Source: a virus. Taken from it: 41,185 nucleotides of DNA. Position numbers and translations under genes: made by a program. Of this stretch, positions 11,616-41,185 are shown piece after piece. The DNA lies in IMG/VR virus record IMGVR_UViG_3300027737_000005, positions 1 through 41,185 of that record; one strand, written 5' to 3'. The notes under the pieces were generated by a model. That model was not told where the DNA came from and searched no databases. It saw only the letters and a list, made by a program, of their open reading frames with translations. Each line of letters begins with the position of its first letter. Positions within the stretch are counted from its first letter, which is position 1.

Positions 11616-13133
11616 TTATGGACCTCCCAACGAGCTAAGTCTAGTTGAGACGATATTTCGGATAGCCGTATCTTGTGTGATTGCTTGCGCTTGCGCAAAC
11701 TTCACCGCAAGCGTCGCATTCTGAGCCATCATTCCTGAATAATACGGATCGCGATAAATCAAGTTCATGGAGTATCCATCCTGATTTATATGCGTGATGG
11801 CTTGCTTGCCTATTACTGTATTGTAATAGACATCACTGCCATTGGCAGATGCTCCACGTGCAACAGGCGCTTCTGAGCTAGTCAGAATACGGATGTTGAA
11901 CACAGAACCATACTCAGAAGGCAATGCCGAAGAATTATTTGGATAATTCCATTGGTTAATGAAACCAGAACCTGTCAGCGCGTCGAAATCGGTTTGTAGT
12001 TCCGTTGACGACAGCATGAAATATGCCGAACGCACAGGACCAGTACCGAATCTGTCCATGCCTTCGATACCCGACATGAACTTGTAAGCATTGTTCGTGT
12101 CAAGAGTCGTTGCTACCAAGCTAAAGTCAGACACTCCAAGATTAGTTGGATTGTCCCCGTTAGAGCCGCCACCAGCATTAATCTGAGAAGCTGCAGAAAC
12201 GACGTAGTCGCGCAAAATTAACAATCTGTTACCCCACTTTCGTGTGGATAGGTCATTTCTGCCTATCTCCAGACCTTTCGTCGTCTGGTTCGGACTGTCG
12301 CATCCCATTTCTGGGCCTCTTCACTCAGTCTCTCACGGTGGCCTAAAGCCTTCCGCCCTGTCGGCATGCCTTTCGGGTTAGCCTTCCAAGTCAATCAGAA
12401 GAGGTTTATCGAGGACTTAATCTTAATCCTCGGCTTGCCGCATTGCAACAGCCAGTCTTTCGCTGACCCATGCAAGTACCATTTATGCAGCAGCTAAGAG
12501 GGCGTACTCATTACCCTCCTGGTCCTGGAGAATACATTTTTGTTACTCCACATAGTGGGGACAAGTCATTTCTGCTTGTCTCTGCGACTTTCTTTATTCT
12601 CGCAGATCGGACTATCGCTTAACTTTTCAGTTCCTACCCGCTTTAGTCTCTCACGGCCTATAAACCAACAAAGCATTAAATAAGAATGATTATCAAATTC
12701 TTTCAATCTTTCTATATATTCTTTCGTAAGTTCCATAGTTCCGCCTTATCACCCTGTCGGGCTTCTAAGTCAATTAGGGCTGGTTTATAGCAGGCTAAAT
12801 TCTCATCCACCTGCTCATTGATTATGCAGCCAGTCTATCGCATAACCAATTGTTTCGGCACTGGCGACCACCGAAAAAAGCCATCTGGGCGTCTATGATA
12901 TCCCTTTGAGGGACCTGCGCGGGTGGATCTATCCCGCTGTTACCCAACTGAATGGTGGGTGGTGTTAGCGCCCTCGGGCGCATAAATCTAGCAGTCGTGC
13001 CGCCGTTTGCTGGCATACTGATCTTATCGCACACAGTGATGTAGTTCATCGTGGGCGTAGGAACATAGAGCATTGCGGGAGCTAACGATTGTAGAATGAG
13101 GGGACCTAGGTTCCCTGTAGTCGTAATCGACAT
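11616..13133 (-). CDS. major capsid protein (HK97-fold type), split by two group I introns: exon 1 is 13133..12870, a micro-exon ends at 12513 and starts between 12534 and 12550, exon 3 starts 12234-12225 and ends at 11616
   Basis: Exon 1 reads PANGGTTARFMRPRALTPPTIQLGNSGIDPPAQVPQRDIIDAQMAFFG. Exon 3 reads LLILRDYVVSAASQ...NLIYRDPYYSGMMAQNATLAVKF, which looks like a capsid C-terminus. The gap carries ribozyme cores and no ORF. Confidence 0.75.
12226..12512 (-). ncRNA. group I self-splicing intron, capsid intron 2, ORF-less (3' end at 12226, 12232, 12233 or 12235)
   Basis: In minus orientation: P1 AGGAGGGU/GCCCUCUU with a closing U-G pair, P3 CCUCUUC/GAAGAGG, R-like GUGAGAGACUG (12336..12326), P8 CCCA-GAAA-UGGG (12314..12303), J8/7-P7 GCGACAGUCCG (12301..12291), P9 CCAGAC/GUCUGG. 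Confidence 0.8.
12535..12869 (-). ncRNA. group I self-splicing intron, capsid intron 1, ORF-less, with an AT-rich ~85-nt insertion in the P6 region (3' end at 12535, 12548 or 12551)
   Basis: P1 UUUCGGU/GCCGAAA with a closing U-G pair, R-like GUGAGAGACUAA (12654..12643), P8 AACU-GAAA-AGUU (12632..12621), GCGAUAGUCCG (12618..12608), P9 UCUGCGA/UCGCAGA. Homologous to the other two introns. Confidence 0.8.
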
Positions 13134-13290
13134 GCTAACCTCATAGGTTGCATGTTATCGGGATATGGGGATCGGTGGACGACAAGCCTCCTACGTCCGT
13201 TCTCGGCCATATCTATGCAGTAACGCTACTTCTGCGAAGCGGTGCACATAACGCTTGTGCTTACGTGGAATCCATTATGCAAAAAACTAT

Positions 13291-13446
13291 TTAATTGTCA
13301 ATCTGTTCTATACTGAGTAGAGCAGATTGAAGGCGTTCGCTTGAGCAGTCCGGGTCAAATTCGTCGCCTTGATGGCATTGATATCCCAAAGAGGAGAGAA
13401 GTGTTAAGAGATGATGTTCGAGATCCGATTCGTAGATTTTAGCCAT
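13291..13446 (-). pseudogene. hsdR: 5' stub of a type I restriction R subunit gene (51 codons then stop)
   Basis: AGAGGAAAAA RBS and ATG lie 8 nt after the hsdS stop. MAKIYESDLEHHLLTLLSSLGYQCHQGDEF... matches the SE.DLE...I..L...GY pattern of HsdR N-termini. No helicase or nuclease domains follow. Confidence 0.5.
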
Positions 13447-13454
13447 TTTTTCCT

Positions 13455-14759
13455 CTATAAAACCTGAGATGCTTGCTTCTCAGCATCATTAATGGAGATC
13501 TCACCTGATAAAAGCTTGGAAAGAAGGCTATCGCGTATAGTTGCAAGGGTATGTGATTCGCGCACATTTGCTACTAGCCTTTTTCGGAATGGAAGTATTA
13601 ATTGATAGTAATGTTCTATAAGGGCACTTGGTGGGATAACAAGGTTCGTTCCCACAATAACCCTTGCGTTCATGTTGGCTTGAACTGAGCCTCCCTTTGC
13701 TCCTTCGGCATAATTCTTATAGAGGTCTGATTTCAGGAAACCATAAATAAAGTAGCCCCAAGCTTTCGATTCTGGCTTAAGACGAACAAGATATGAAGCA
13801 AAAATCGCATCCATATCCTCCTCGATAATGGCTGATTTTCCAGGGTCTGCCATTCTAGCAACGACCAAATCACCAACAGTGAGCGTGTACCTACTCTTTA
13901 AATCTCTATCAATATCGCAATGGGGTACGGTACTCCAATCAATCCAGTTCTTCTTATTGATATCCATGACTCTCAGAAACTTTGGGCCAGCATTCTCTGC
14001 ATGCGCACTCGTTGTGTAACCGTACTGAGTAGAGCAGATTTCGGATAATTTTTTTATCTTCCATCCTTTGGGGATTAAATTCAGTTTGCAATCTTCGAAA
14101 CCATCAGGGAAAAGAGCAGCTATCTCATCGCTCATGTTTAAGGGTTTGCAACTTTTAGCTTTAGCATAAACAGGATCGAAGTCGAGAAACCAGCTTTTGA
14201 AGATCACTTGGGCCATTGTATCCAGAGTTTCATTCACCTGTCTGTTGAGTTCGATCATTTCGTCCAACCTTCCCAATATTGCTGCAATGGCTTTTTGCTC
14301 TTCAATACTCTCAGGTAGACTTACTTTGAAATTTTTAAGAGCTGTTCCCGAAATTTCTTTAAAAGTAGTTCCGCCAGCAACATTTTCAATAAATTTTGTG
14401 TAAAATTTGAGAAGATAAAATAAAAATTCTGAGTTTGCATTTTTTTTGGGAATTAGGCTTTTGAAGCCTTGATTTGTTGCAAGATCCTGTCCAGCAATTG
14501 CCACATAACCTATTGGTGCGCGAGAACTAAAAAGAACAGATCCCTTCGGAAGTAAACGAGCACCGGAACTGTTCAAACCTGAAGTAGAAATGTTTCTCTC
14601 ACCAAAATAAATATATCTATTTTGATAATTTGAGAGATCTTTAGGGGTAATCCACGGTATGTTTCCTGAGAAAAAGTTGGGGTTTTTTGTACTGGGAGTA
14701 CTGCCTCCAACAATATCAGCAATATCATTTATACAAACATTTTTCCAGCCTTTACGCAT
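13455..14759 (-). CDS. hsdS: type I restriction-modification specificity subunit HsdS (434 aa, two TRDs)
   Basis: Two TRD starts (NDIADIVGGSTPST and LSEICSTQYGYTTS) and conserved coiled-coil spacers (EEQKAIAAILGRLDEMIELN and LATIRDSLLSKLLSGEI). Confidence 0.9.
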   Translation of the reverse strand: MRKGWKNVCINDIADIVGGSTPSTKNPNFFSGNIPWITPKDLSNYQNRYIYFGERNISTSGLNSSGARLLPKGSVLFSSRAPIGYVAIAGQDLATNQGFKSLIPKKNANSEFLFYLLKFYTKFIENVAGGTTFKEISGTALKNFKVSLPESIEEQKAIAAILGRLDEMIELNRQVNETLDTMAQVIFKSWFLDFDPVYAKAKSCKPLNMSDEIAALFPDGFEDCKLNLIPKGWKIKKLSEICSTQYGYTTSAHAENAGPKFLRVMDINKKNWIDWSTVPHCDIDRDLKSRYTLTVGDLVVARMADPGKSAIIEEDMDAIFASYLVRLKPESKAWGYFIYGFLKSDLYKNYAEGAKGGSVQANMNARVIVGTNLVIPPSALIEHYYQLILPFRKRLVANVRESHTLATIRDSLLSKLLSGEISINDAEKQASQVL

Positions 14760-16302
14760 ACCCGAGTCCCTCCAAGTTGCGCTGAATTTGCTTTGTTAGC
14801 TGCTGTGCTTTATCCATCTGGGCATAGAGTTTTCCTACCAGCGCCTGCATTTGGCTTTCAAATGGTATGGTATCTTCATCGCTGATCTCTGTGCCCACGT
14901 ATCGACCAGGTGTTAAGATGTGCCCATTCTGTCGCACCTCGTCAATTGTAGCTGCCTTGCAGAAGCCTGGGATATTATCGTATGTTCCAATTCCGTTTTG
15001 ACCCCGCCAGGAATGATAGGTCATCGCAATACGATTTATTTCTTCATCGGAAAAAACCTTCTGAGTTCTTGTGGCAAGTTGGCCTAGTTGACGAGCATCA
15101 ATGAAGAGGATCTCATCGCGACGGTCCTTAAGTTTGGTTTTCCCCGACTTGCCGTTAGAGCGATTCTTTGCTAGGATCCAGAGACACGCGGGAATCTGGA
15201 CTCCAAAAAACAACTGACTTGGAAGAGCCACCATACAATCGACCAGATTATTCTCTACGAGAGCTTTGCGGATCTCGCCCTCCCCGGCGGTATTTGAGGC
15301 CATTGATCCGTTGGCAAGGACAATGCCAGCTACACCATTAGGTGTAAGATGATGAATGATGTGCTGTATCCAGGCGAAGTTTGCATTGCCTTCGGGTGGG
15401 ATTCCATACTTCCAGCGAGGGTCTTCTCTTAGTAGCTCGCCCGACCATTCTTTGATATTGAAAGGAGGATTCGCTAGGACATAGTCGAAGCGAAGATCTG
15501 GTAGGGCATCTTTTAGAAGAGTCCCTTCACTATTCCAGTGAATTTCGGCTTCTACACCTCTGATAGCGAGATTCATTTTAGCAAGTTTCCAAGTGGTGTT
15601 ATTGCGCTCTTGCCCATAGATAGCAATATCGCCAAGTTTTCCCTGGTATGCCGAGATCAGTTTCTCCGATTGGACGAAGAATCCACCTGTTCCGCAGCAA
15701 GGATCATAGACACGCCCATGTAAGGGCTCTATCATTTCGACGAGGGTGCGGACAATAGAAGCAGGTGTGTAGAAATCGCCGCCGCGCTTTCCCTCTTTAC
15801 CTGCAAATTCAGCGAGAAAGTACTCGTAAATTCTACCTAAAAAGTCGAAATCTGCCTCGCTATGTGAAAGCTTGATATTAGTGAAGAGGTCAACTAGTCG
15901 CCCTAACATAGTTGGATTCAAACTTGCTTTGCCATATTCCTTGTGAAGAACACCCTTTAACGCAACGTTCTCGCTTTCTAAGGCGCGCATCGCCTCGTCA
16001 ATCTTTTTGCCAATGTCGGGCAAACGAGCTTGTGATGCTAAGGTGGACCATCGAGCAGCTTCTGGCACCCAAAAAACATTTTCAGCTTGATACTCCTCGG
16101 GATCCTCTGCGTTGGCTAAGTCGTTTTTCAAAAGTTCGGCTTGCTTCTTTTCAAAAGCTTCTGAAAGATAACGTAGAAAAACCAGTCCAAGAACAATGTG
16201 TTTATATTCTGCAGGATCCATAGCTCCTCGGAGCTTTTCTGCGGAATCAATCAAGGAAGCTTCAAGCGATATGTCCTCTTTTTGGTTCTTTCTGGTTTTC
16301 AT
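14752..16302 (-). CDS. hsdM: type I restriction-modification N6-adenine DNA methyltransferase HsdM (516 aa)
   Basis: HsdM N-terminal domain (AEYKHIVLGLVFLRYLSEAF), motif I DPCCGTGGFF, motif IV LANPPFN. The 3' end overlaps hsdS by 8 nt. Confidence 0.9.
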   Translation of the reverse strand: MKTRKNQKEDISLEASLIDSAEKLRGAMDPAEYKHIVLGLVFLRYLSEAFEKKQAELLKNDLANAEDPEEYQAENVFWVPEAARWSTLASQARLPDIGKKIDEAMRALESENVALKGVLHKEYGKASLNPTMLGRLVDLFTNIKLSHSEADFDFLGRIYEYFLAEFAGKEGKRGGDFYTPASIVRTLVEMIEPLHGRVYDPCCGTGGFFVQSEKLISAYQGKLGDIAIYGQERNNTTWKLAKMNLAIRGVEAEIHWNSEGTLLKDALPDLRFDYVLANPPFNIKEWSGELLREDPRWKYGIPPEGNANFAWIQHIIHHLTPNGVAGIVLANGSMASNTAGEGEIRKALVENNLVDCMVALPSQLFFGVQIPACLWILAKNRSNGKSGKTKLKDRRDEILFIDARQLGQLATRTQKVFSDEEINRIAMTYHSWRGQNGIGTYDNIPGFCKAATIDEVRQNGHILTPGRYVGTEISDEDTIPFESQMQALVGKLYAQMDKAQQLTKQIQRNLEGLGYA

Positions 16303-16383
16303 ATTACCTCCTTGTATTTCAACAAATTAATGAAATAGCACAACCTATTTAAATCTGATTGGCAACATGAACGAATTTCTTAT

Positions 16384-17052
16384 TCATATCCTCAGCCGAT
16401 TCTTGAGTTCTTGCATCTTCGCAAATGCATTCTTTTGCCCTGCAGGACTGAAATCTCCAGTCGCTGCATAAGGAGCAGATCCTACGCCACCAGGCTGATA
16501 ATAAGAACTTTTTTTGTTAGCATCCACTTTTTCTTGGATGGTGGATTGCTTGGTTTCAGGCTTGTGCAGACCGAGTGCCTTTATGTTCTTGTATACGAGT
16601 TTTTGCCTTTCGAAACCTTCCGGCATCTCCAAGATACTTTCAGCTAGATCGGGGTCTTTCTGCGCGAACTTTTCCGCGTGCTGCATTACTTCGTAAAAAT
16701 CAGGGTTATTCTTAATCCAGTTTTGCCGTCTTTCATCTTGTAGAGCGGCTCTAACAGCTTGCTGTATTTCCGTTTGCGTCTGTTGCCTAGTCTGCTCACT
16801 GAATTTTTTCAGAGTATTATTTAACTTTTTGTGGTCTACAAATGGTTCTGAATCATTTTCATCAGCTTCTTGAGGTTGTTGCATTCTGATAATAAGTTCC
16901 TGTGCTTTCTTTTCAGCTTCTATCCGAGCAGATCTTTCTTGCTCTAGCTGCCTTTGAAACATTTGTTCTTGTTTTCTAAAATTCAGTTCTTTATCACTTG
17001 GTTTATTTTCCTCAGGTTGTTGGAGAGGTGTTTCTTGATTCGGTACTGTCAT
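16384..17052 (-). CDS. scaffolding-like protein (222 aa, Q/E/K-rich coiled coil)
   Basis: Composition, and position between the portal and capsid genes. Confidence 0.45.
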   Translation of the reverse strand: MTVPNQETPLQQPEENKPSDKELNFRKQEQMFQRQLEQERSARIEAEKKAQELIIRMQQPQEADENDSEPFVDHKKLNNTLKKFSEQTRQQTQTEIQQAVRAALQDERRQNWIKNNPDFYEVMQHAEKFAQKDPDLAESILEMPEGFERQKLVYKNIKALGLHKPETKQSTIQEKVDANKKSSYYQPGGVGSAPYAATGDFSPAGQKNAFAKMQELKNRLRI

Positions 17053-18380: not shown

Positions 18381-20357
18381 TTACCTCATTTGGGCCATCT
18401 GGCCCTGTTGTTGATTCTGATTATTCATACTGCCCATTATCTGTGCAATAAATCTTTTAGAAGCTTCGCTCTTCTCGATATCTTTTCGCGCATTCTTTTC
18501 TGTTTCTTCTTCGTCAAATTTAATAGAGTCAAGGTTATTAGATTGTAAGAATGTTTCCAACTCTCCAAATTTCTGAATGGTTTCCAGAAGCATCGTAAGA
18601 GCCTCCATCTTTTCTTTTGTCGCTAGGCTATGGTTCTTGCTTATCTCGCTCATACGCTCTTCAAACAATCCTACATTGCTTTCACTTCTAGAATCCCTCT
18701 CACGCGCCTGGGAGAGCAGATTATGGATCCTTGCCATAAGCTCTTTCATCTTCATTTCTTCAACAGTGTGCTTGATATTAATCTCTTCTGACTGCACTGC
18801 TTGCATCTGCTGCTCTTGTTGTTGCAAAATCTGCACAATCTCTGCTTTTCCAGTGATATTGAGCTTAGGAATAATCTGAGAAGGTGAGAACACTTCGCGC
18901 CCAAAGGCCGCATTCATATCCATCATCTGCTGAGCTTGCAAGTTTTGTTGCGTCGGAGTCAAGTCACTCTCTTCGACAATACACTGAAACTTGCTAAATA
19001 TCTTACTGTAGAAATATGGAGAAGGCTCCTCGCCTATTAACAATCCAACTTTCTCAGCACTCCAATTGTTTAAGGCTATCTGCAAAAGACGTTCTCCAAG
19101 AAGTTTATCTGAAAAGTCCCACTGATCAAAATATTTCTGAAAAACCATCAAATTAGCAGCTGATTTCAACATCATCGTCAGACTACTTATCTGCTTATCA
19201 TTTTGTCCAGACCAATTCTCGAGATTAATTCCCGCTGTTTGCCATATCAAATTACCCATCTGCTCCGCAAGAGCCATATCGCTCTCTGGTACTCCAGAAG
19301 GGATAATTTTTTCACAATCCGTCATCTCGTAGCCTTCATTGATGATGACGTCCCAGCCCTGTCCAGACTTCTTAAGATTGTCTTCATTTGCAACAGCTCC
19401 AACTTTTCGCTTCCAACCCGCATTGATTGTCGCAGCTGTGATATCGTTGTTTGTGATGATCTTATAATTATAAAGAAATTGAGGATCGCGCATAGTCCGA
19501 ATAAGCCCACGAACGCGCAGATCGTAATAATTGTTATGCGGTTCGTAGTTCCAGTAATAGGGAATGAAAGGACATCCATCGAAACCAAGAGGATTATCGC
19601 CCTGAAACATCAACTGATCGTTCAGAACCACAGCAAGTTTCCAGCACGGTGCCTCTACGGTTACTTCTTCCATGTCCGGAATACTATATAAAATCTGCTC
19701 CAAGTGGCCATCATCCCCAGCAAAGTCAAAGAATTGATTCCTAGTACGACTATAAAGCCTTTTTTTCTTCCGTTTCCATTTGTACCAGACATATGAGAGC
19801 ACCATTAAATCGTTTCTCGCCATATTGTAGTTTTCCGGAAGGAAATAAAAACTTCCGTACCTCTGAGGCGTTCCAGCCATCGGCACAATAGCCTCTAACT
19901 TATCAGGAAAACGGCTTTCCGCCTCTTTTTTGCTGATGTATTCTTGACACCATACAAACTGAGCATCGCTCATATCAGGGCTTCTAAAATATGGATCTAC
20001 CAAAAACGCATTATATTCCCACAACTTGAGCTTCAGCTCTCCTTGAGCCTGATCATCTCCTGTATAGTCTAAATATGGCTGTAGAAGTACCATACCGGTG
20101 ATCGCCGACTGTTCTTTGGCTTGCGATTTTGTCTCATGAATCATCCCTTTGTTCGCCACATGCGTAATCAATTTTGTGTACTGGTCCGTCGTCTGCGGAT
20201 CCGCCCCCTCCGTCGGCACATAACTAAAATTTTTCCGATGCTGCCTCTCACACCCCGTAAGCATATTAATAGGCTGCTGGCAGATGTTAAAGTAGTACTG
20301 CTGAAACGATGTCGTAGGGCTAAAATTGAAATACCGATTCACAAACGTCTGGGCTTT
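18381..20357 (-). CDS. portal protein, main exon
   Basis: About 650 aa with a portal-like N-region (YYFNICQQPINMLTGCERQHRKNFSYVPTEGADPQTTDQYTKL, which parallels the P22 gp1 layout) and a C-terminal Q-rich coiled coil. It lies downstream of terL. The frame is open back to 20357. Confidence 0.8.
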   Translation of the reverse strand, partial: KAQTFVNRYFNFSPTTSFQQYYFNICQQPINMLTGCERQHRKNFSYVPTEGADPQTTDQYTKLITHVANKGMIHETKSQAKEQSAITGMVLLQPYLDYTGDDQAQGELKLKLWEYNAFLVDPYFRSPDMSDAQFVWCQEYISKKEAESRFPDKLEAIVPMAGTPQRYGSFYFLPENYNMARNDLMVLSYVWYKWKRKKKRLYSRTRNQFFDFAGDDGHLEQILYSIPDMEEVTVEAPCWKLAVVLNDQLMFQGDNPLGFDGCPFIPYYWNYEPHNNYYDLRVRGLIRTMRDPQFLYNYKIITNNDITAATINAGWKRKVGAVANEDNLKKSGQGWDVIINEGYEMTDCEKIIPSGVPESDMALAEQMGNLIWQTAGINLENWSGQNDKQISSLTMMLKSAANLMVFQKYFDQWDFSDKLLGERLLQIALNNWSAEKVGLLIGEEPSPYFYSKIFSKFQCIVEESDLTPTQQNLQAQQMMDMNAAFGREVFSPSQIIPKLNITGKAEIVQILQQQEQQMQAVQSEEINIKHTVEEMKMKELMARIHNLLSQARERDSRSESNVGLFEERMSEISKNHSLATKEKMEALTMLLETIQKFGELETFLQSNNLDSIKFDEEETEKNARKDIEKSEASKRFIAQIMGSMNNQNQQQGQMAQMR

Positions 20358-20650
20358 CTGTTACTTTTGTGACCTATCTCTAGGCGGGGTTCCCTCTTCG
20401 GAGATCCCTCTCCATATTACTATGGAGTTCAGACTATCGCTTCACCTTGCGGTGTCCTCTCACTTAGTCGTTCACGGTCCCTTTCGGGTTCCGCCTTGTC
20501 TTCCCATAGGGAGGTCCAAGTCAATCAGAGAAGATTTAAACAGGGCCCAATTTTCAAAAAATTACTTAACCCTGCGTAAAATAAAGTGTCAATATTAGAT
20601 TGATTCCAGCGCTACTCACTTTATTTACTAACAGTCCCGCTTTCATATTA
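20358..20650 (-). ncRNA. group I self-splicing intron at the 5' end of the portal gene, ORF-less
   Basis: P1 AACAGUCU/GGACUGUU with a U-G pair at the splice site (U20651), 12-bp P2 GUAAAUAAAGUG/CACUUUAUUUUAC, P3 UCUUCUC/GAGAGGA, GUGAACGACUAAG (20475..20463), P8 CACC-GCAA-GGUG (20454..20443), GCGAUAGUCUG (20440..20430), P9 CUCCAUA-GUAA-UAUGGAG. Confidence 0.8.
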
Positions 20651-20692
20651 AGACTGTTCTATTGGTTGAAATTTTGAATATAAATTATCCAA
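20651..20692 (-). CDS. candidate portal exon 1 (14 codons from TTG 20692; start codon uncertain)
   Basis: This is the only frame open through the 5' splice site. It reads (RQW)LDNLYSKFQPIEQS and joins in frame to KAQTFVNRYFNFSP at 20357. The frame has no ATG. Confidence 0.3.
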
Positions 20693-23030: not shown

Positions 23031-23117
23031 TGCTTTCCTTTCCTTTCCTGTCCCTTCCTTTCCTTTCCCTTCCTTTCCATTCCCCTTCCTTCTCTCAAAA
23101 TTATCCAAACCTCGAAT
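23022..23117 (-). repeat. polypurine pentamer array copy 2, with the same 5' flank TCGAGGTTTGGATAATTTTGAGAG (here the last codons of terL)
   Basis: Read directly; ends AAAGGAAAGCAATGGTTTTA. Confidence 0.85.
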
Positions 23118-24378
23118 CGAATCGCCCTTGCATATATTTAGTGGGATTATGCTTGTATGGCTGATAAATCGCAACCTTATGGGTTGATAAACAATATCTT
23201 AAACAGTCTACCAAGTGATCATCTTTTTTGATGGGTTTGTCTTCTCCTCGCTCTGCCACTTTCGGATCCCAGCAATAGCCCTCTATCTCTCGTATCAAAT
23301 TGCGGCACTTGCTCAGAATTAGGCATTTTCCCTCTTTTACGTCGGACACCATCCTGTGGATTCCGGGAACGACCTCATTGTTAGCATCTACACAATGCAC
23401 ACCTCGCTTGCCTAGATCATGTCGCAAAGCTGCTGCGCTCGGGTCAATATACACTCCTTTAATCGCATACGGTTCCAAAAACGCAACGATATCATCTGCC
23501 AATTCGCTGACCGCTTTTTCTCTGTTTTTTACCTTGACGTCCCAAAAATACTCATCTTCTACCCACATCTGTTTACCTGTTTGTGTCTGCATTCCTGTCG
23601 ATACCCCTATAAGCACACAAGCGCAGGGATTGGACATCCCATAATCAACGCCCGCTATCCAATAATTGGCACCACAGGGAGGCTCGTCTACTACATAATA
23701 GTCTCGATCCCAAAAATCAAACACGGCGCCCTCCGCCAGGCACCATATACCCAAGTAGTTTCTTTTGTAAAAAAGCCCCGACAAACTATTTGCAAGCATT
23801 TCTTTATAATCCTTAGGTAAGTAAGGATTATCATCGATCATGAATTGCAACGCATAGTATTTAGGATCCCCTTGCTCGGCTAGATCTATTAACCCTTTGA
23901 TCTTATGCGTCGGATGCTTTGGATTCATGCTCGCAAAGCCTATGCTATGAGGCAACCTAAGCCTCGTCAATATCATTTGGAGGACGTTTTCTGGAAACAA
24001 AGTCATCTCATCAGCATAGGCAATACTGATCGTTTTACCTTGTATACGTCCTATCGAGCCTTCGTCTTTTGCTCCTATGACAGTGATCGTTTTATCGAAT
24101 ACTTTGAGCAATCCGTTGCCAGGAAACCACGTGCAGAACGGTTTGTAAATGGCAAATTGCGGTGTTTCGAATATAAGTTTTATACAGTTTTCATATACAG
24201 TTGATGACGAAAACCCAAACATATAGATCTGACTGTCAGGACATTCGTAAACAGCTTGAAGAAAGCGAAATAGCGTAGCTACCGTTTTTCCGCTGCTGAC
24301 AGGGCCGTGAGCAAAATTCCAGCCCTTTGTGCTATTAATTATAAATTCAAGTTGCTTAGGAGAAAAGGGATCTGGCAT
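23101..24378 (-). CDS. terL: terminase large subunit (425 aa from ATG 24378)
   Basis: Walker A GPVSSGKT, Walker B-like ISIAYADE, and a C-terminal nuclease-type region (WIAGVDYG..., DDHLVDCLRY). AGGAAT lies upstream of the ATG. Confidence 0.85.
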   Translation of the reverse strand: MPDPFSPKQLEFIINSTKGWNFAHGPVSSGKTVATLFRFLQAVYECPDSQIYMFGFSSSTVYENCIKLIFETPQFAIYKPFCTWFPGNGLLKVFDKTITVIGAKDEGSIGRIQGKTISIAYADEMTLFPENVLQMILTRLRLPHSIGFASMNPKHPTHKIKGLIDLAEQGDPKYYALQFMIDDNPYLPKDYKEMLANSLSGLFYKRNYLGIWCLAEGAVFDFWDRDYYVVDEPPCGANYWIAGVDYGMSNPCACVLIGVSTGMQTQTGKQMWVEDEYFWDVKVKNREKAVSELADDIVAFLEPYAIKGVYIDPSAAALRHDLGKRGVHCVDANNEVVPGIHRMVSDVKEGKCLILSKCRNLIREIEGYCWDPKVAERGEDKPIKKDDHLVDCLRYCLSTHKVAIYQPYKHNPTKYMQGRFDSRFG

Positions 24379-24390
24379 ATTCCTGATACT

Positions 24391-24768
24391 ATGAGAAACC
24401 GAGCTAAATGTAAACTCTGTTCTAGCATTATTGAAAGCTTCCATCCAACTGACTATGTCGCATGTAAGTGCGGAGAGATATCTGTCAGCGAAGGAGCTGC
24501 AATGCGTTGTGCGGCTCTCAATTGGGACAATTTTCTCCGCGTTGATGACGAAGGTAACGAAATTGTTCCTAATGTTCAGATGGCAGAGGCTGCAATTGTT
24601 CCTAGAGAAACACACTCGAAGCCTACCAAAAAAGAACTTTTAGATATGTTAGAAGAGATGATAAAGAATATAGAACGGCTTCCATCTAATGCGATGGCTC
24701 AGCCTGTGAATCATTATGACTTGGTTTCGGCGCTACTGTTGTTGTCGTCTATCTTCAAAACCGAATAG
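24391..24768 (+). CDS. small zinc-ribbon protein (125 aa) on the opposite strand between terL and the MTase gene
   Basis: MRNRAKCKLCSSIIESFHPTDYVACKCGEISVSEG has the CxxC...CxC pattern common in small phage proteins. ATG lies 12 nt from the terL ATG, and the 3' end overlaps the MTase 3' end by 36 nt. Confidence 0.55.
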   Translation: MRNRAKCKLCSSIIESFHPTDYVACKCGEISVSEGAAMRCAALNWDNFLRVDDEGNEIVPNVQMAEAAIVPRETHSKPTKKELLDMLEEMIKNIERLPSNAMAQPVNHYDLVSALLLLSSIFKTE

Positions 24769-26019
24769 ATCGAGCTCTGGTTCTTTGGCTGCTCTCAGCC
24801 GATTTTCTGCGATTTCGAAGTAATCTTCTGATATCTCAATCCCTACTGCACTTCGCCCAAGTTGCTTTGCTGCGACTATTGTAGTTCCAGAACCTGCAAA
24901 TGGATCTAGCAATACGGCTTCAGGATTAGGCGGCATTATAAGTTTTATGAGATACTGCATGAGGGCGAGAGGTTTGACCGTTGGATGAACTGATGGTTTA
25001 TCAAGCCCCGCATTACGCTCAGCTGAGGAGGCTTTCGCGCAGTAGAAGAAGCGGGATGCACCGCCGGAATCGCCGAATCCTGATTCTTGAGCAAGTATCT
25101 TTAAGCCTTTTGCATATCCAACCCATTCTTTTTTTCTCGAACCTGGCTTTCCACTTTTTAGATTCCCACTCTGCTGGTCGAGTAATTCTGCGGCTTCTTC
25201 ATCCAGAAGGAGATTAGCGGGCCAGCGGCCGGTTAGATTTTCTCCTGTGATTGTTCCGGATGGAATCGCATTTAATTGCTTGCACCCTATCCCACCACTT
25301 CCAAAAGGTCGTGCAAGTGATTCGCTTGTCCCAATCCTACACCCATCAATATTAATGCCAGCTACTCCCCATTTCTCTGCATTCTGGGCAAATGTGCCTT
25401 CGCAGGGCTTCATGGCCATTATAATTATTTCAACTGCCGGCTTTAGAGCAGTTCCGTAACCTTCAAATCCTTTAATGCCATCGCATTTTTCACACGTTCC
25501 CATTCGATTAGTTTGTGTGTTCGATTGTCCGGAAACAGTTCCAGATTCTCGATTGCATTGTTCCTGGTATTGTGATCTTTGTGATGAACCACTTCTATCC
25601 TTTGCAATATCTTGTTGAGGTGTTTGGCCATCACTAATCGATGTTCCATCACATAACCGTCCTTGCGAGCCATTATCCCCAGTACATTTGCAACCAAAAT
25701 TATGACTTTTCGGGAATCCTTGTCCGAAACACCAATAAAGGCAAGTTCTGATTTCCCATCCTGCTTGTTCAAGTGCATTCATAAGATGGTGATGAGTACG
25801 ATCACCTCCAAAAGCTAGTAGATGAGCTCCTGGCTTACAGATGCGAAAAGCTTCTTCCCAGAAGTGTTTGCCAGGAATGCCATGGTCCCAGTCTTTACCC
25901 ATGAAATGAAGGCCATAGGGAGGGTCGGTGATGATGCAGTCAATGGAGTTGGCCGCCATTGTTCGCATGGCTTCGAGGCAATCACCCTTGATTATTTTCT
26001 GTGTCGCTCTTTGGAGCAT
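24733..26019 (-). CDS. DNA methyltransferase, N6/N4 beta-class (428 aa), uninterrupted ORF
   Basis: Motif IV DPPYG comes near the N-terminus, with GFPKS, GTALKPA, GRWPAN and HPTVKP in between, and motif I DPFAGSGTT near the C-terminus. Confidence 0.85.
   Translation of the reverse strand: MLQRATQKIIKGDCLEAMRTMAANSIDCIITDPPYGLHFMGKDWDHGIPGKHFWEEAFRICKPGAHLLAFGGDRTHHHLMNALEQAGWEIRTCLYWCFGQGFPKSHNFGCKCTGDNGSQGRLCDGTSISDGQTPQQDIAKDRSGSSQRSQYQEQCNRESGTVSGQSNTQTNRMGTCEKCDGIKGFEGYGTALKPAVEIIIMAMKPCEGTFAQNAEKWGVAGINIDGCRIGTSESLARPFGSGGIGCKQLNAIPSGTITGENLTGRWPANLLLDEEAAELLDQQSGNLKSGKPGSRKKEWVGYAKGLKILAQESGFGDSGGASRFFYCAKASSAERNAGLDKPSVHPTVKPLALMQYLIKLIMPPNPEAVLLDPFAGSGTTIVAAKQLGRSAVGIEISEDYFEIAENRLRAAKEPELDLFGFEDRRQQQ
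25443..25778 (-). CDS. HNH endonuclease ORF in the +1 frame inside the MTase gene (111 aa from ATG 25778, or 76 aa from ATG 25673)
   Basis: KDGYVMEHRLVMAKHLNKILQRIEVVHHKDHNTRNNAIENLELFPDNRTHKL is a full HNH signature (HH...N...N...H). It coincides exactly with the variable linker of the MTase frame. Confidence 0.6.
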   Translation of the reverse strand: MHLNKQDGKSELAFIGVSDKDSRKVIILVANVLGIMARKDGYVMEHRLVMAKHLNKILQRIEVVHHKDHNTRNNAIENLELFPDNRTHKLIEWERVKNAMALKDLKVTELL

Positions 26020-30834: not shown

Positions 30835-31074
30835 ATGTACGATGAAGATGATAATTTTAGCTGGGGATGGAGCGATGAGAGAAGAGAGATTATCGAGGCC
30901 CATAAATATCAGTTTAGGGAGTTTCTGAGAGCGAAGAGAATGTATGATGCATATGTTGATGAAGAGAATGAAATGCATGAGGATGAGAAAATCGAATTAC
31001 AAGATGAATATATTAAGGAATGGCGATATAGCCTTGAGTCCGACGAATCGCTTTATGGAGGAAGTTTAAGATGA
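30835..31074 (+). CDS. acidic hypothetical early protein (79 aa)
   Basis: AAGGAG RBS then ATG; D/E-rich. Confidence 0.5.
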   Translation: MYDEDDNFSWGWSDERREIIEAHKYQFREFLRAKRMYDAYVDEENEMHEDEKIELQDEYIKEWRYSLESDESLYGGSLR

Positions 31075-31661
31075 AAGAAGAAATCAAAGAGGGATACATA
31101 AGAATATCAAGCATTTCAAGCGCTTTTGCTAATTACGGGAAAGTACCACAACATGTATTAGATCGAGCGGCTGCACGTGGCGAATGCGTGCACCGTTTGA
31201 TCTTCGATCATATCAATGATATTATGATCCCTTCCGACCGTTATGAGTTCATGGGAGATAAACTTGATGGATATTTCGAAAGTTTTCTCAAGTTTTGGAA
31301 ACGATATGAGGGAGCAAAAATCCTAATCCAAGAACAGCGCTTATATGATGATCGAGAAATGCTCACAGGAGAGCCCGATCTTCTCATTGAAACTGAAGAA
31401 GGCATCATTCTGATTGATTGGAAATGTACAAGTGCGGTAGGTAAGCATTGGATTATCCAAGCTGGTGGTTATGATAACTTGGTGATTGAGAATGGATATG
31501 GTGATATATTCAAGAGTTTATTCGTGAATTTAGACAAAAAAGGTGGGGAACCTATCATAACTGAATATGATGTGGCAAGCGCCTATGATATGTTCAATAA
31601 CGCTTTTGAATTATATAGGATTTTTTTCAGAGATCAGACATGTAACTTGGAGAATGAATAA
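31071..31661 (+). CDS. PD-(D/E)XK family exonuclease, recombination partner of the RecT-like protein (196 aa)
   Basis: GECVHRLI...GEPDLLIETEEGIILIDWKCTS carries the D...(D/E)xK nuclease motif; it lies two small ORFs upstream of the RecT-like gene. Confidence 0.6.
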   Translation: MKEEIKEGYIRISSISSAFANYGKVPQHVLDRAAARGECVHRLIFDHINDIMIPSDRYEFMGDKLDGYFESFLKFWKRYEGAKILIQEQRLYDDREMLTGEPDLLIETEEGIILIDWKCTSAVGKHWIIQAGGYDNLVIENGYGDIFKSLFVNLDKKGGEPIITEYDVASAYDMFNNAFELYRIFFRDQTCNLENE

Positions 31662-31840: not shown

Positions 31841-32088
31841 TGGATATTCTATTTAAAATTTCTATGTTTTTATTCGGAAGTTCTGTATTATATTTCATGC
31901 ATCATTCAATGAAACATTTTGATATATTAGATAGATATATCACAAAAGATATAACATTAGAGAGATCAGTATTAACTCAACTGGAATGTTCAGAACGTGC
32001 ATTTTTGAGACATGATGCTCGTATTGTAGAGCTAGAAACTCGGATTAAGAAAATTGAAGAAAATATAAGGGATAAAACAAATGTCTAA
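31837..32088 (+). CDS. small membrane plus coiled-coil protein (83 aa)
   Basis: N-terminal hydrophobic segment ILFKISMFLFGSSVLYFM followed by a coiled coil. Confidence 0.5.
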   Translation: MMDILFKISMFLFGSSVLYFMHHSMKHFDILDRYITKDITLERSVLTQLECSERAFLRHDARIVELETRIKKIEENIRDKTNV

Positions 32089-32896
32089 AGAATTAATCGT
32101 TAAAGAAGAAAACTTTGATCTGTTAGCTGATATTGAACTAATGCAATCAGCGGCGAAGAAACTCATGCAGACAAAACACTATCAAGCAATGGGAGAAGCT
32201 GGAATTTTTGCGATCATTCAAAAAGCAAAAAGCCTGAAGATTAATCCGATTGATGCTCTAAATGGAGGGCTTTATTTTACGCAAGGCAAAGTTGGAATGA
32301 GTGCCGAGATGATGAATACGTTAATCCGAATTCATGGGCACAGTATTCAGAAGGACTCTAGAAGTAATGACCAGATCTGTATACTGATCGGCAAGCGTGC
32401 GGATAATGGAGATACATGGATAACATCATTCAGCATTGATGATGCTAAAAGAGCTGGTATATATAATGAGAAAACTCCCTGGGGAAAGTATCCACCGAAT
32501 ATGTGTTTCAACCGGGCCCTTTCCAATTTAGCTAGGCAGCTGTTTCCGGATGTGATTAAGGGCTGCTATGAAATCGATGAATTGAAGAGTTTTGCAGAAC
32601 CTGTCAATTATAAGCAGCATATGGTCGAAGTGGAATTGCCTGAGTTGCAGAAGGATGAAATAGAGGCATTTTATAAGAATTTCAATGGGGATGAGGCATC
32701 GACGAGAGAATACGTGAAGATGTGTATGGAGAAGAAAAAATGTTCAGAGTCTAATGTGATCATCAATCTGAAAAAAGATATTGAGGCTAGCCATACGACT
32801 TATGCGAGATGGAAGGCGAAACAAAAACCTGTAGAAATCGAACCTGTAGAATCGCCGAGCATGGAAAGCGTTTCAATATTTGAGGGGGTGAAATAA
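32081..32896 (+). CDS. RecT-family single-strand annealing protein (271 aa)
   Basis: GIFAIIQKAKSLKINPIDALNGGLYFTQGKVGMSAEMMNTLI...KTPWGKYPPNMCFNRALSNLARQLFPDV resembles RecT/Bet-type annealases. Confidence 0.65.
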   Translation: MSKELIVKEENFDLLADIELMQSAAKKLMQTKHYQAMGEAGIFAIIQKAKSLKINPIDALNGGLYFTQGKVGMSAEMMNTLIRIHGHSIQKDSRSNDQICILIGKRADNGDTWITSFSIDDAKRAGIYNEKTPWGKYPPNMCFNRALSNLARQLFPDVIKGCYEIDELKSFAEPVNYKQHMVEVELPELQKDEIEAFYKNFNGDEASTREYVKMCMEKKKCSESNVIINLKKDIEASHTTYARWKAKQKPVEIEPVESPSMESVSIFEGVK

Positions 32897-33138: not shown

Positions 33139-33372
33139 ATGAATGAAAACGAGAAAGAAGAATATGTGGATAGATGCTTGAAACTAGAAAGTATTATTAG
33201 AATGGAATTGGCAAATGAAGAAATTCCAAGAGTAAGAGCGGCTGTTTTATCGACTTTGCTCACTGACGAAATAATGCATCAAGATAGATGGGAATATTGC
33301 TTAAAACAAGTAATATCTATAATCGAAAATAGATGTATTGAAGAATCTAAAAAGCCCGATATTAAAAAGTGA
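33139..33372 (+). CDS. hypothetical protein (77 aa)
   Basis: ORF in operon. Confidence 0.5.
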   Translation: MNENEKEEYVDRCLKLESIIRMELANEEIPRVRAAVLSTLLTDEIMHQDRWEYCLKQVISIIENRCIEESKKPDIKK

Positions 33373-33383
33373 GGAAAAGTCTG

Positions 33384-34049
33384 ATGGAATATCCAAAGAT
33401 ACATTCACTATATAAAAGAGAATCGCATGGAAAAAGACAACTTATTATTGGAGATCTGGCCAAAGAAGAATTCAGATCCATTATTCATTGGACAGTCACT
33501 GAAAAAGTGGACGGTACAAACATACGAATTTGTCTGGATCGCGCAACACTTATACGTGAAGGCCACAACTACATCAAATTTGGAGGCAGAACAAATAACG
33601 CTCAAATCCCTTCAAGTCTTCTGGAATATCTACAAGCCACATTTACGTACGAAAAGATGGATAAAATATTCGCAGATTCGCAATTCATCGTGTTATTCGG
33701 TGAGGGATATGGTCCAAAGATACAATCTGGTGGCTATTATCGAAGTGATGTATCGTTTATTCTGTTTGATGCATATGTGTCGGGCTGGTGGTTAGAGAGA
33801 GATAAGATCGTTCAGATAGCACACGATTTAGGCATCGATCATGTACCTTTAATTCCTTCTAGAAATGTTTTAGAGCCTGATTTATGGAATTTATATGATA
33901 TTGTCAGCCAGGTGAGATCGAAACCGCAGTCCGCGTTAGCAAAAGAATGTTATATAGCAGAGGGAATAGTCGCTCGGAGCTATCCTTTGATGTTATTTCG
34001 GAATGGAGAGCCGATTATGTTTAAGCTAAAGTGCAAAGATTTTCCATAG
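33384..34049 (+). CDS. ATP-dependent RNA ligase-like nucleotidyltransferase (221 aa from ATG 33384)
   Basis: MEYPKIHSLYKRE...WTVTEKVDGTNIRI carries motif I KxDGxN, and EGYGPKIQ follows later. GAGGA RBS lies 8 nt upstream. Confidence 0.6.
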   Translation: MEYPKIHSLYKRESHGKRQLIIGDLAKEEFRSIIHWTVTEKVDGTNIRICLDRATLIREGHNYIKFGGRTNNAQIPSSLLEYLQATFTYEKMDKIFADSQFIVLFGEGYGPKIQSGGYYRSDVSFILFDAYVSGWWLERDKIVQIAHDLGIDHVPLIPSRNVLEPDLWNLYDIVSQVRSKPQSALAKECYIAEGIVARSYPLMLFRNGEPIMFKLKCKDFP

Positions 34050-38724: not shown

Positions 38725-41185
38725 TTAAATCCCCATTGCTACGACGGTTATGTTGGTGACTGTTGGTGAATTTGTCCCCGCCACCTTAACATAGTAGTTA
38801 TTTGGAACGTAAGCAAAAATTGTAAAAAATGTGGCCGTTGCTACAGTAAAAGTTGGAACGGCAGTATTCGCTGTCGGAGCATTTGTGGTTCCTACTCCTA
38901 GAGTCAATGTTGCCCCTGTAGCTGCCGAAACTTGTACAACGATACTTAAAAGAACGTCATAACCGGTTGTATTTTGAGCTGCTGTACCAAGTGTCAATGA
39001 AGCTCCAAATGCACTTGTGGCGGTATTTGCTGCCACAGGAGTTGTGACGATATTACCACCGATTGTCGTAGTGGTCACATTTGTGGTCGAATTCCCGATA
39101 TTGATGGCATGGGCTGCAGCTGTACCAGTACCGATATTGATAGTCGCGGCATGTGTACCATTACCACCGGCAACAAGATTGAATGTTGGCGCTACGGTCG
39201 TATACGTACCATTAAAAATGTTTACGCTATTTGTACCACCTGTAAAGTTTCCATTGAATATATTAAAATGGTTTGTGCCTTGTGTGAGAACACCACCCAA
39301 GAAATCTGCTGTTTGGTTACCACTAGAACCAACACCACCTAAACAAACCAATGCTGTAGTAGCACCAGGAGTCGTTCCGCTCAAGATATTGACAGTTTGT
39401 GCTGCTGTGATGGATGCACCAGACGCAATATTTAGAGTCTGAGCGGATGCCGCAACACCATTTAACAAACCGACAGTCAAAGCACCTGTAGATGTACCTA
39501 CATTAATAGCTCCTGTTTGAGCAACAGCGCCTATAGTGATAACCTGGGCAGCATTGCCTCCAATACCAATGCCGATAGTGTTACCAGAGCCGGCAATGAT
39601 CGTGACAGCACCACCGGCATTAGAACCAATGTTTGTCACGTGTGCCGCACTCGTTCCTGTACCGATATTAGTTGTGCCAACGGCTGAAGCTGAACCACTA
39701 AACAAATTGAAAGATGATGCATGCGTAAATGCACCCGAAAAGATGTTAACATTAGCCGCTACTGTAGTAAATGCACCAGAGAAGATATTGACGGCATTTG
39801 TACCACCTGTAAATGCAGCATTAAATAGATTGAATGAATTGGTGCCACCTGTAGTGATACCTCCGAAGAATGTTGCGGTATTCGTTCCTTGCGAGATTGC
39901 TCCACCCTGGCAGCCAAAAACCTGGCTTCCAGCGCTACCTAAGCCGCTCATGATTGTCAATGTCTGATTAGCTGCAGGTGTTGCGCCTGCCATAATATTG
40001 ACAGCATTGGCATTGCTATTTGATGCAGCACTAGCAATCGATACCGTGTTTGCTCCGGACCCTCCAGAAATAATGACACTATTTGTGGCTGTGGAAGATC
40101 CTAGAGTAATGATACCAGTCTGTGCTGCTGCTCCAATCGTGATTGTGGCAGCTGCTGTACCTGCAATCGATGCATTTCCAGTTCCGAAAAGTAGACTTAA
40201 GGACGAAGATGATGAAACCGATCCGATCGAGATAACTTGTGCTGATGCTCCAGTACCAATTCCAATCGTATTTGTGCCGGCACCTGTACCGATATTGACA
40301 GCATTCGTCCCTGTACCTGTAACGATATTCATCGTTTTATTTCCGTTTCCAGTACCTACGTTGACTGTATTGGTACCCGTACTCGTGCCGAGAGATATGG
40401 CTCCTGTTTGAGCAGCGGCTCCGATTGTGATAGTTGCTGCAGCGTTTCCAGATATTGTTGTGTTACCACCGGATCCGGATTGTAGGGTAAGCGATGCACT
40501 TGCTGTTGTTGATCCAAGCGTAATAACGTTTGCCGCGGCATCGTTGAATAACTGGATGGTATTGCCACCACCTGTTGCTGTTATACCTCCCGCACCCGAT
40601 GCAATAGTAATTAGACCACTGGATCCTCCGATAGTCGTGGCAGCGGTTCCAGAGGCGTTTATAGATGTTGTACCAACTGATGTTAATGTTGTGAATGTGC
40701 CTGCTGCTGATGCTGTTCCTCCAATGGCCGGAGGAGATGCAAATACAGCGCTTAGATTTGAAGGTTGTACTGCAAGAGCAGTGACGCCTGGTACTGTTGC
40801 AGTTCCAGCTACAGCTTGAGCATTTGTCGCTAAATTCGTGATACCCGTCACTGTAGTTTGGGCAATGTTTGCACCAGCAAGTACTAAACTCTGGCCATAG
40901 GCGAAGACATCATTCGCAGAAGATACATATTGAGCGCTAGGCGCCGTTCCTGCCTCGGTCTGAGCAGTTGTAGCTAAATAAACTACCCCTAGATTAGTGT
41001 TAGAAGCTGGTTGGCCTTCAGGAGATGACCAATTCGAAGTGAGAGTGCCTCCAGAACTACTTTGAGACAATAGAACATATTCTCCAGAACCAATATAGAT
41101 CCACCGTGTACCTAGAGCATAATTAACGTCTTGTGCCGTCGGAGCTCTATTTTGAAAAACAACGTTTGTAACCGCATTAGCAGGC
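38725..41185 (-). CDS. tail fibre/spike protein, main part; the true gene is 38725..41086 joined to 1..149 (836 aa)
   Basis: Ala/Gly/Thr/Asn-rich beta-helix-like repeats (AAATITIGAAAQTGAISLGTSTGTNTV twice; NIFSGAFT and NIFNGNFT repeats). The frame stays open to the window end and continues at the window start. Confidence 0.75.
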   Translation of the reverse strand, partial: PANAVTNVVFQNRAPTAQDVNYALGTRWIYIGSGEYVLLSQSSSGGTLTSNWSSPEGQPASNTNLGVVYLATTAQTEAGTAPSAQYVSSANDVFAYGQSLVLAGANIAQTTVTGITNLATNAQAVAGTATVPGVTALAVQPSNLSAVFASPPAIGGTASAAGTFTTLTSVGTTSINASGTAATTIGGSSGLITIASGAGGITATGGGNTIQLFNDAAANVITLGSTTASASLTLQSGSGGNTTISGNAAATITIGAAAQTGAISLGTSTGTNTVNVGTGNGNKTMNIVTGTGTNAVNIGTGAGTNTIGIGTGASAQVISIGSVSSSSSLSLLFGTGNASIAGTAAATITIGAAAQTGIITLGSSTATNSVIISGGSGANTVSIASAASNSNANAVNIMAGATPAANQTLTIMSGLGSAGSQVFGCQGGAISQGTNTATFFGGITTGGTNSFNLFNAAFTGGTNAVNIFSGAFTTVAANVNIFSGAFTHASSFNLFSGSASAVGTTNIGTGTSAAHVTNIGSNAGGAVTIIAGSGNTIGIGIGGNAAQVITIGAVAQTGAINVGTSTGALTVGLLNGVAASAQTLNIASGASITAAQTVNILSGTTPGATTALVCLGGVGSSGNQTADFLGGVLTQGTNHFNIFNGNFTGGTNSVNIFNGTYTTVAPTFNLVAGGNGTHAATINIGTGTAAAHAINIGNSTTNVTTTTIGGNIVTTPVAANTATSAFGASLTLGTAAQNTTGYDVLLSIVVQVSAATGATLTLGVGTTNAPTANTAVPTFTVATATFFTIFAYVPNNYYVKVAGTNSPTVTNITVVAMGI
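41087..41185. repeat. terminal direct repeat copy 2 (identical to 1..99)
   Basis: Same 99 nt as the window start. Confidence 0.95.

Follow-up and report, generated by a model that had tools for sequence, protein, structure and literature searches.

A type I hsdM-hsdS cassette lies among the head genes of a phage

The window analysed here is the whole of IMG/VR virus record IMGVR_UViG_3300027737_000005, a 41,185 nt phage sequence encoding terminase, portal and capsid genes. The region of interest is a cassette of type I restriction-modification genes on the minus strand, consisting of (i) an intact hsdM (methyltransferase subunit) gene, (ii) an intact hsdS (specificity subunit) gene that overlaps hsdM by 8 nt, and (iii) the first codons of an hsdR (restriction subunit) gene (Table 1). 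The first 99 nt of the window recur at its end (positions 1–99 and 41087–41185 form a terminal direct repeat); the window is thus a complete circular assembly of 41,086 nt.

An earlier annotation made from the letters and open reading frames (ORFs) alone, hereafter the sequence-only reading, described a complete HsdM carrying the motifs DPCCGTGGF and NPPF, and beside it an HsdS with two target recognition domains (TRDs). Both genes were confirmed, and all three ORFs lie on the minus strand at the coordinates given. HsdM matches the Pfam domains N6_Mtase (E=1.7e-103) and HsdM_N (E=4e-24) and the PADLOC profile MTase_I (E=1.6e-185), with motif I (DPCCGTGGF) at residue 200 and motif IV (NPPF) at residue 278. 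The protein is nearer to EcoR124II (phmmer, E=1.6e-35) than to EcoKI (E=1.3e-14), and its nearest solved structure, 3khk, is an uncharacterised structural-genomics HsdM. The gene is preceded by a strong ribosome-binding site (RBS), AAGGAGG. HsdS contains two Methylase_S stretches (Pfam) and gives a full-length Specificity_I match (PADLOC); its best solved structure is 1yf2. The conserved central and C-terminal regions, which hold the two HsdM subunits, are both present. Inactivating changes in either protein, which would have counted against the sequence-only reading, were looked for: the catalytic motifs of HsdM are kept, HsdS is full-length, and of 167 columns with at least 97% conservation across 120 homologs, HsdM retains 166.

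Only the start of hsdR is present

The third ORF begins 8 nt past hsdS, after a purine-rich stretch (AGAGGAAAAA), and has no match in Pfam, NCBIfam, PADLOC or PDB. Since these curated libraries were blank, the ORF was compared with HsdR proteins from operons that encode homologs of the phage HsdM. A profile of 39 HsdR N-termini, built from these operons, matched only this ORF among 1598 six-frame segments of the window (E=1.3e-4). In pairwise comparisons with the HsdR proteins of the three closest operons, the stub aligned from residue 1 (52–70% identity over 33 aa; E values of 1e-9 to 1e-14); the best match, at 70% and E=1e-14, was the HsdR of operon L242. The donor-type proteins start MAK(V/A)YESDLE...LGY, and the stub starts likewise (MAKIYESDLEHHLLTLLSSLGYQ...). 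What the sequence-only reading called an HsdR-like N-terminus is, by both profile and pairwise alignment, a real HsdR start: ~47 residues are HsdR-derived, with an apparent internal deletion of ~7 residues, and the last three codons and stop (ATT GAC AAT TAA) are phage backbone.

The genome is complete, as the 99 nt terminal overlap shows, and has no hsdR elsewhere. Full-length donor HsdR proteins matched nothing in it except the stub (residues 1–33), and no large ORF contains a helicase or ResIII domain. Judged by its genes, the phage encodes the HsdM and HsdS of a type I restriction-modification system and lacks the HsdR that would complete it. The HsdR fragment itself is probably a recombination scar, from which no activity is expected.

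The cassette fills a variable slot between two head genes

The cassette occupies the space from the stop codon of a scaffold-position gene to the promoter-like site of the major capsid gene, co-oriented with the head genes. This agrees with the placement proposed by the sequence-only reading; the downstream gene belongs to the N4 gp56 capsid family, and the upstream gene, which has no Pfam or PHROG match, is called scaffold by position only. (The TIGR04387 match falls on the C-terminal part of the capsid gene, which starts at 13133.)

The boundaries of the cassette were set by comparison with related phages. IMG/VR holds more than 200 relatives, whose capsid and portal proteins are 70–93% identical to those of the window; 159 fetched viral loci (L081–L239) served as the comparison set. 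Homology to these loci stops at the scaffold end of the cassette and resumes at the capsid end. The promoter-like sequence at the capsid end is also found in relative L188 and is therefore phage backbone; it is followed by the conserved capsid leader. As hsdR breaks off where the backbone resumes, the last codons of the stub are the −35 box of the capsid promoter. The sequence-only reading held that the restriction subunit had been deleted from a captured operon. The loss of the nuclease stands; as the end of hsdR coincides with the backbone junction, the nuclease gene may never have been captured whole, instead of having been deleted afterwards.

None of the 159 related loci contains hsdM, hsdS or the stub. 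Among them, 167 to 4593 nt separate the scaffold stop from the capsid start, and the slot holds other cargo: a TROVE protein, a ResIII/DEAD helicase, a weak GmrSD_N-like protein, an outer-membrane beta-barrel protein and many small cysteine-rich ORFs. The beta-barrel protein hints at a diderm host. Between the scaffold-position gene and hsdM (16303–16383), no clear promoter-like or terminator-like site was found, which makes co-expression of the cassette with the head genes plausible.

The capsid leader itself (13134–13273, minus strand, ~140 nt, conserved in relatives) contains a repeated GCGTTA motif and three hairpins with apparent covariation by eye. RNAalifold on a MAFFT alignment of the leader supported only a 4 bp helix.

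The cassette derives from a bacterial hsdM-hsdS-hsdR operon

In a collection of 5.8 billion proteins, the closest relatives of the phage HsdM are 70–76% identical and lie on metagenome contigs. Five of the six genomic contexts that were fetched for close HsdM proteins are hsdM-hsdS-hsdR operons (L240, L242, L244, L246 and L247), and the HsdM proteins of L240, L242 and L244 are 75–76% identical to that of the phage. All five operons share the 8 nt hsdM/hsdS overlap and have a gap of 8–13 nt between hsdS and hsdR, which is 8–10 nt in the closest ones; the HsdS of L242 also has the same length as the phage protein (434 aa). DNA similarity to these operons falls into four stretches: from 46 nt upstream of the hsdM start (position 16346, in the case of L240) through hsdM, the central region of hsdS, the 3' end of hsdS, and the first ~100 nt of hsdR. 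Within hsdS, similarity at both the DNA and the protein level is limited to the central and C-terminal conserved regions; the TRDs differ, as would be expected if the two enzymes have different specificities. The same gene spacing, the stub match and the DNA homology all support the proposed capture from a bacterial hsdMSR operon.

The lineage of the donor is not derivable from these matches: HsdM hits in GTDB genomes are only 52–57% identical and spread over many phyla, including archaea, while the 70–76% relatives are metagenome contigs. Several of the donor-type operons lie on elements with integrase or primase-like genes. Their neighbourhoods resemble defence islands, with Mrr_cat/DUF8426, DUF4357, AbiEi/AbiEii, Z1, SIR2_2, and an integrase or DUF3987-primase.

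A predicted modification-only enzyme that would protect progeny DNA

The complete phage genome encodes a methyltransferase without its cognate nuclease, that is, an orphan methyltransferase. We think it probable that the cassette specifies a modification-only M2S1 enzyme and that the phage thereby protects the DNA of its progeny. Under this proposal, (i) illegitimate recombination would have given the phage hsdM, hsdS and the first ~50 codons of hsdR from a bacterial type I operon; (ii) the captured piece would have landed in the variable cargo slot between scaffold and capsid; (iii) HsdM and HsdS would assemble into an M2S1 methyltransferase, unable to cut DNA; (iv) this enzyme, made during infection, would methylate adenines of replicating phage DNA, within the bipartite site that this HsdS recognises; and (v) progeny would enter the next cell with marks that any type I system of the same specificity takes for self. 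It is established that M2S1 is an active methyltransferase without HsdR, and that mobile elements carry orphan methyltransferases which protect exported DNA (PMC12707154).

Several points weigh against this proposal. Firstly, we infer expression, assembly, methylation and benefit to the phage from the sequence. Secondly, unmodified DNA is a poor substrate for some type I methyltransferases, EcoKI among them (PMC12707154), in which case protection would be limited. Thirdly, the best HsdS outside this phage is only 60% identical and uncharacterised: no matching host system was found, and no recognition sequence could be predicted from it. Finally, all recovered copies of the cassette are identical, so that the ratio of nonsynonymous to synonymous substitution (dN/dS) is unavailable and purifying selection within the phage not measurable; the cassette could be a recent, still-undecayed passenger.

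Inert carriage of this kind—an accidental capture in a tolerant slot, of no benefit and bound to decay—would fit a slot that holds unrelated cargo in relatives, a cassette found in this genotype only among the related loci, and a lack of sequence variation that would reveal selection. We nonetheless consider it unlikely, given that hsdM and hsdS are both fully intact while the neighbouring hsdR is gone. The genotype is also abundant enough to have been assembled repeatedly: at least 15 contigs, spread over six or more public assemblies, encode an identical HsdS, and six fetched loci from six assemblies match the window at 100% identity for as much as 21.3 kb, bar one 15 nt indel. Samples with this phage are ERZ27315279/292/299/316 and JGI 3300004080 and 3300027768. 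The phage with its cassette is thus a real genome in circulation. Furthermore, the family includes a second phage whose hsdM, from the same clade, is intact. Contig L245, with a portal protein 76% identical to that of the window, carries a full-length solo hsdM upstream of terL (L245:2550-4091); it is 73% identical to the window's hsdM and 76–77% to those of bacterial operons, and neither hsdS nor an hsdR remnant lies beside it. Its different locus marks it as an independent capture, and suggests that hsdM genes have been captured repeatedly, and usefully, from the host gene pool.

The cassette could, hypothetically, serve attack rather than protection: phage M2S1 together with a host HsdR of the same exchange family would form a restriction enzyme with phage-chosen specificity, which would cut the unmethylated host chromosome or competing and co-infecting phages and spare methylated phage DNA. 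Subunits are interchangeable within one type I family (PMC12707154), plasmid-borne orphan HsdS proteins work with chromosomal HsdM and HsdR in Lactococcus (PMC12707154; discussed in PMC11318856), and the phage HsdM, at 75–76% identity to the HsdM of complete operons, possibly came from the host gene pool. Against this, the scheme presupposes a compatible HsdR in the host, replicating phage DNA that is still unmethylated would be equally at risk, and the literature searched documents no phage precedent; we regard such a hijack as very unlikely. Highly improbable, too, is a role in which M2S1 methylation tunes phage or host expression, replication or packaging: type I methyltransferases act as epigenetic regulators in several bacteria, and a second phage methyltransferase could cover protection, but nothing in the sequence points to regulated targets, and relatives manage without the cassette, which therefore cannot belong to the core phage programme.

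That second methyltransferase, which the sequence-only reading had placed beside terL, is indeed there: a beta-class enzyme matching Pfam N6_N4_Mtase (E=2.8e-27) and PHROG 67, DNA methyltransferase (E=1e-65). No integrase was found among the scanned ORFs of the genome. Among GenBank phages, neither DNA nor capsid-protein relatives were found, leaving the phage without an annotated reference.

Table 1. Features of the cassette, its flanks, and the interrupted capsid and portal genes (window coordinates).
Feature	Position	Strand	Basis
Whole inserted cassette, ~3.1 kb	13303–16383	minus	Backbone homology ends at ~16376–16384, resumes at ~13302
hsdM, type I adenine methyltransferase subunit, intact, 516 aa	14752–16302	minus	Pfam, PADLOC, conserved motifs
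hsdS, specificity subunit, two TRDs, 434 aa	13455–14759	minus	Methylase_S, Specificity_I
hsdR stub ORF, 51 codons (HsdR-derived part ~13304–13446)	13291–13446	minus	HsdR N-terminal profile
Left junction and hsdM leader	16303–16383	minus	Sequence read; RBS 16307–16313
Right junction, promoter-like TTGACA-16-CATAAT of capsid gene	13274–13301	minus	11/12 consensus match
Upstream flank, 222 aa gene in scaffold position	16384–17052	minus	Conserved in 122 related loci
Downstream flank, major capsid gene (N4 gp56 family), exon 1	13133–12870	minus	TIGR04387; alignment to intact relatives' capsids
Capsid mini-element, 35 nt	12869–12835	minus	P1/P10 guide, terminal G
Capsid exon 2	12834–12809	minus	Alignment to intact relatives' capsids
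Capsid compact group I intron, 274 nt	12808–12535	minus	Conserved-core profile
Capsid exon 3	12534–12513	minus	Alignment to intact relatives' capsids
Capsid mini-element, 33 nt, in-frame TAA	12512–12480	minus	P1/P10 guide, terminal G
Capsid exon 4	12479–12426	minus	Alignment to intact relatives' capsids
Capsid compact group I intron, 204 nt	12425–12222	minus	Conserved-core profile
Capsid exon 5	12221–11616	minus	Alignment to intact relatives' capsids
Portal mini-element, 39 nt, three in-frame stops	20650–20612	minus	P1 AACAGUCU:GGACUGUU, P10 CGCU:AGCG
Portal group I intron, 215 nt, 43 nt downstream of mini-element	20568–20354 (splice-site rules)	minus	nhmmer match 20558–20352
Second methyltransferase (N6_N4_Mtase)	24733–26019	minus	Adjoins terL (23101–24615)

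The capsid and portal genes are interrupted by introns and mini-elements

In intact relatives, the capsid protein is 322–324 aa long; in the window, its coding sequence is split into five pieces. The portal gene, which starts at TTG 20692, is interrupted as well (region 20354–20692, minus strand). The introns are compact group I introns of a family with a conserved core; a profile of 27 family members matched two in the capsid gene and one in the portal gene of the window. Rfam gave no match on the window's split capsid region even at E=10; a capsid intron of relative L100 gives an Rfam group I match of 79 bits. Among 105 complete capsid genes of the comparison set, 59 are uninterrupted and 46 are interrupted, at ~20 sites.

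The shorter interruptions share a set of features. Each mini-element is preceded by an exon U that pairs with G (a U-G wobble at the 5' junction) and ends in G, and its guide sequence is complementary to the exon on either side (P1 upstream, P10 downstream). Those of the window keep nothing else of a group I intron. In 11 capsid-site elements (ten mini-elements and one 712 nt intron), 90% of P1/P10 positions pair, versus at most 51% in shifted registers, in a small set of related sequences whose pairing constructs were cut by hand; four P1/P10 pairs show compensatory changes that track synonymous changes in the exon. Mini-elements (33–93 nt) stand alone in no gene: every one lies 21–165 nt upstream of a core-containing intron. 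At coding-sequence position 312, a ~950 nt version consists of a mini-element plus a LAGLIDADG endonuclease gene, with no ribozyme core. Ribosomal bypass, considered as an explanation for the 33–39 nt gaps, was set aside for want of matching take-off and landing codons. Most simply, the mini-elements can be read as non-autonomous mini group I introns, which would be spliced with help from the core of a neighbouring intron. The nearest precedent found is a group of degenerate group I introns of 56–81 nt in fungal rDNA (PMC3160393). The introns and putative mini-introns of the capsid and portal genes look more novel than the methylase cassette.

Two further RNA-related features were observed. 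Upstream of the portal gene lies an int-alpA RNA motif (Rfam RF02996; 20944–21013, minus strand; 41.3 bits, above the gathering score). On the plus strand, an RNA ligase gene (PF09414, E=9e-18; 33369–34049) lies near RecT-like (32081–32896) and exonuclease (31071–31661) genes. T4 Rnl2, a ligase that seals nicks in duplex RNA, belongs to the PF09414 family; any bearing of such an enzyme on exons kept in place by a P1/P10 splint is pure speculation.

Discussion

Like EcoKI and EcoR124I, the phage cassette encodes an HsdM with an HsdM_N domain and gamma-class motifs, and an HsdS with two TRDs and two conserved regions; it also keeps the classical M-S-R gene order, as do its nearest bacterial relatives. 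It differs from them in the lack of a nuclease/translocase, of which 47 hsdR codons are left, and its HsdM is distant from both model proteins. HsdM-like genes are uncommon among known phages: they occur in 32 of 50,697 GenBank phage records, the best being 47% identical to the HsdM described here.

Phage orphan methyltransferases used against restriction include T4 Dam and P1 Dam. These are single-chain, type II-like enzymes, whereas the present cassette encodes a type I enzyme from two genes, M and S, with a predicted bipartite site. What it shares with orphan anti-restriction methyltransferases in general is a mobile-element methyltransferase without a partner nuclease, expected to mark DNA before export (PMC12707154). 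Type I genes have been reported as phage cargo in Clostridium clostridioforme LM41, whose prophages phi5 and phi13beta carry complete type I systems (PMC11318856); there hsdR is kept and the systems are read as lysogen defence, while here hsdR is missing and the cassette sits among head genes. A parallel within the phage family is L245, whose solo hsdM belongs to this clade and lies elsewhere in the genome.

Phage methyltransferases are a standard counter to restriction, and almost all known ones are single-chain. The cassette is a rare form of this known anti-restriction strategy and not a new type of system. Its interest lies in the M+S pair and the scar of the nuclease gene, an unusually clean record of a host defence operon turned to counter-defence: the layout of the donor operon, the recombination junctions on either side, and a cargo slot filled differently in relatives can all be read from it. 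Given a methylome, the specificity of the enzyme could become a marker of the host.

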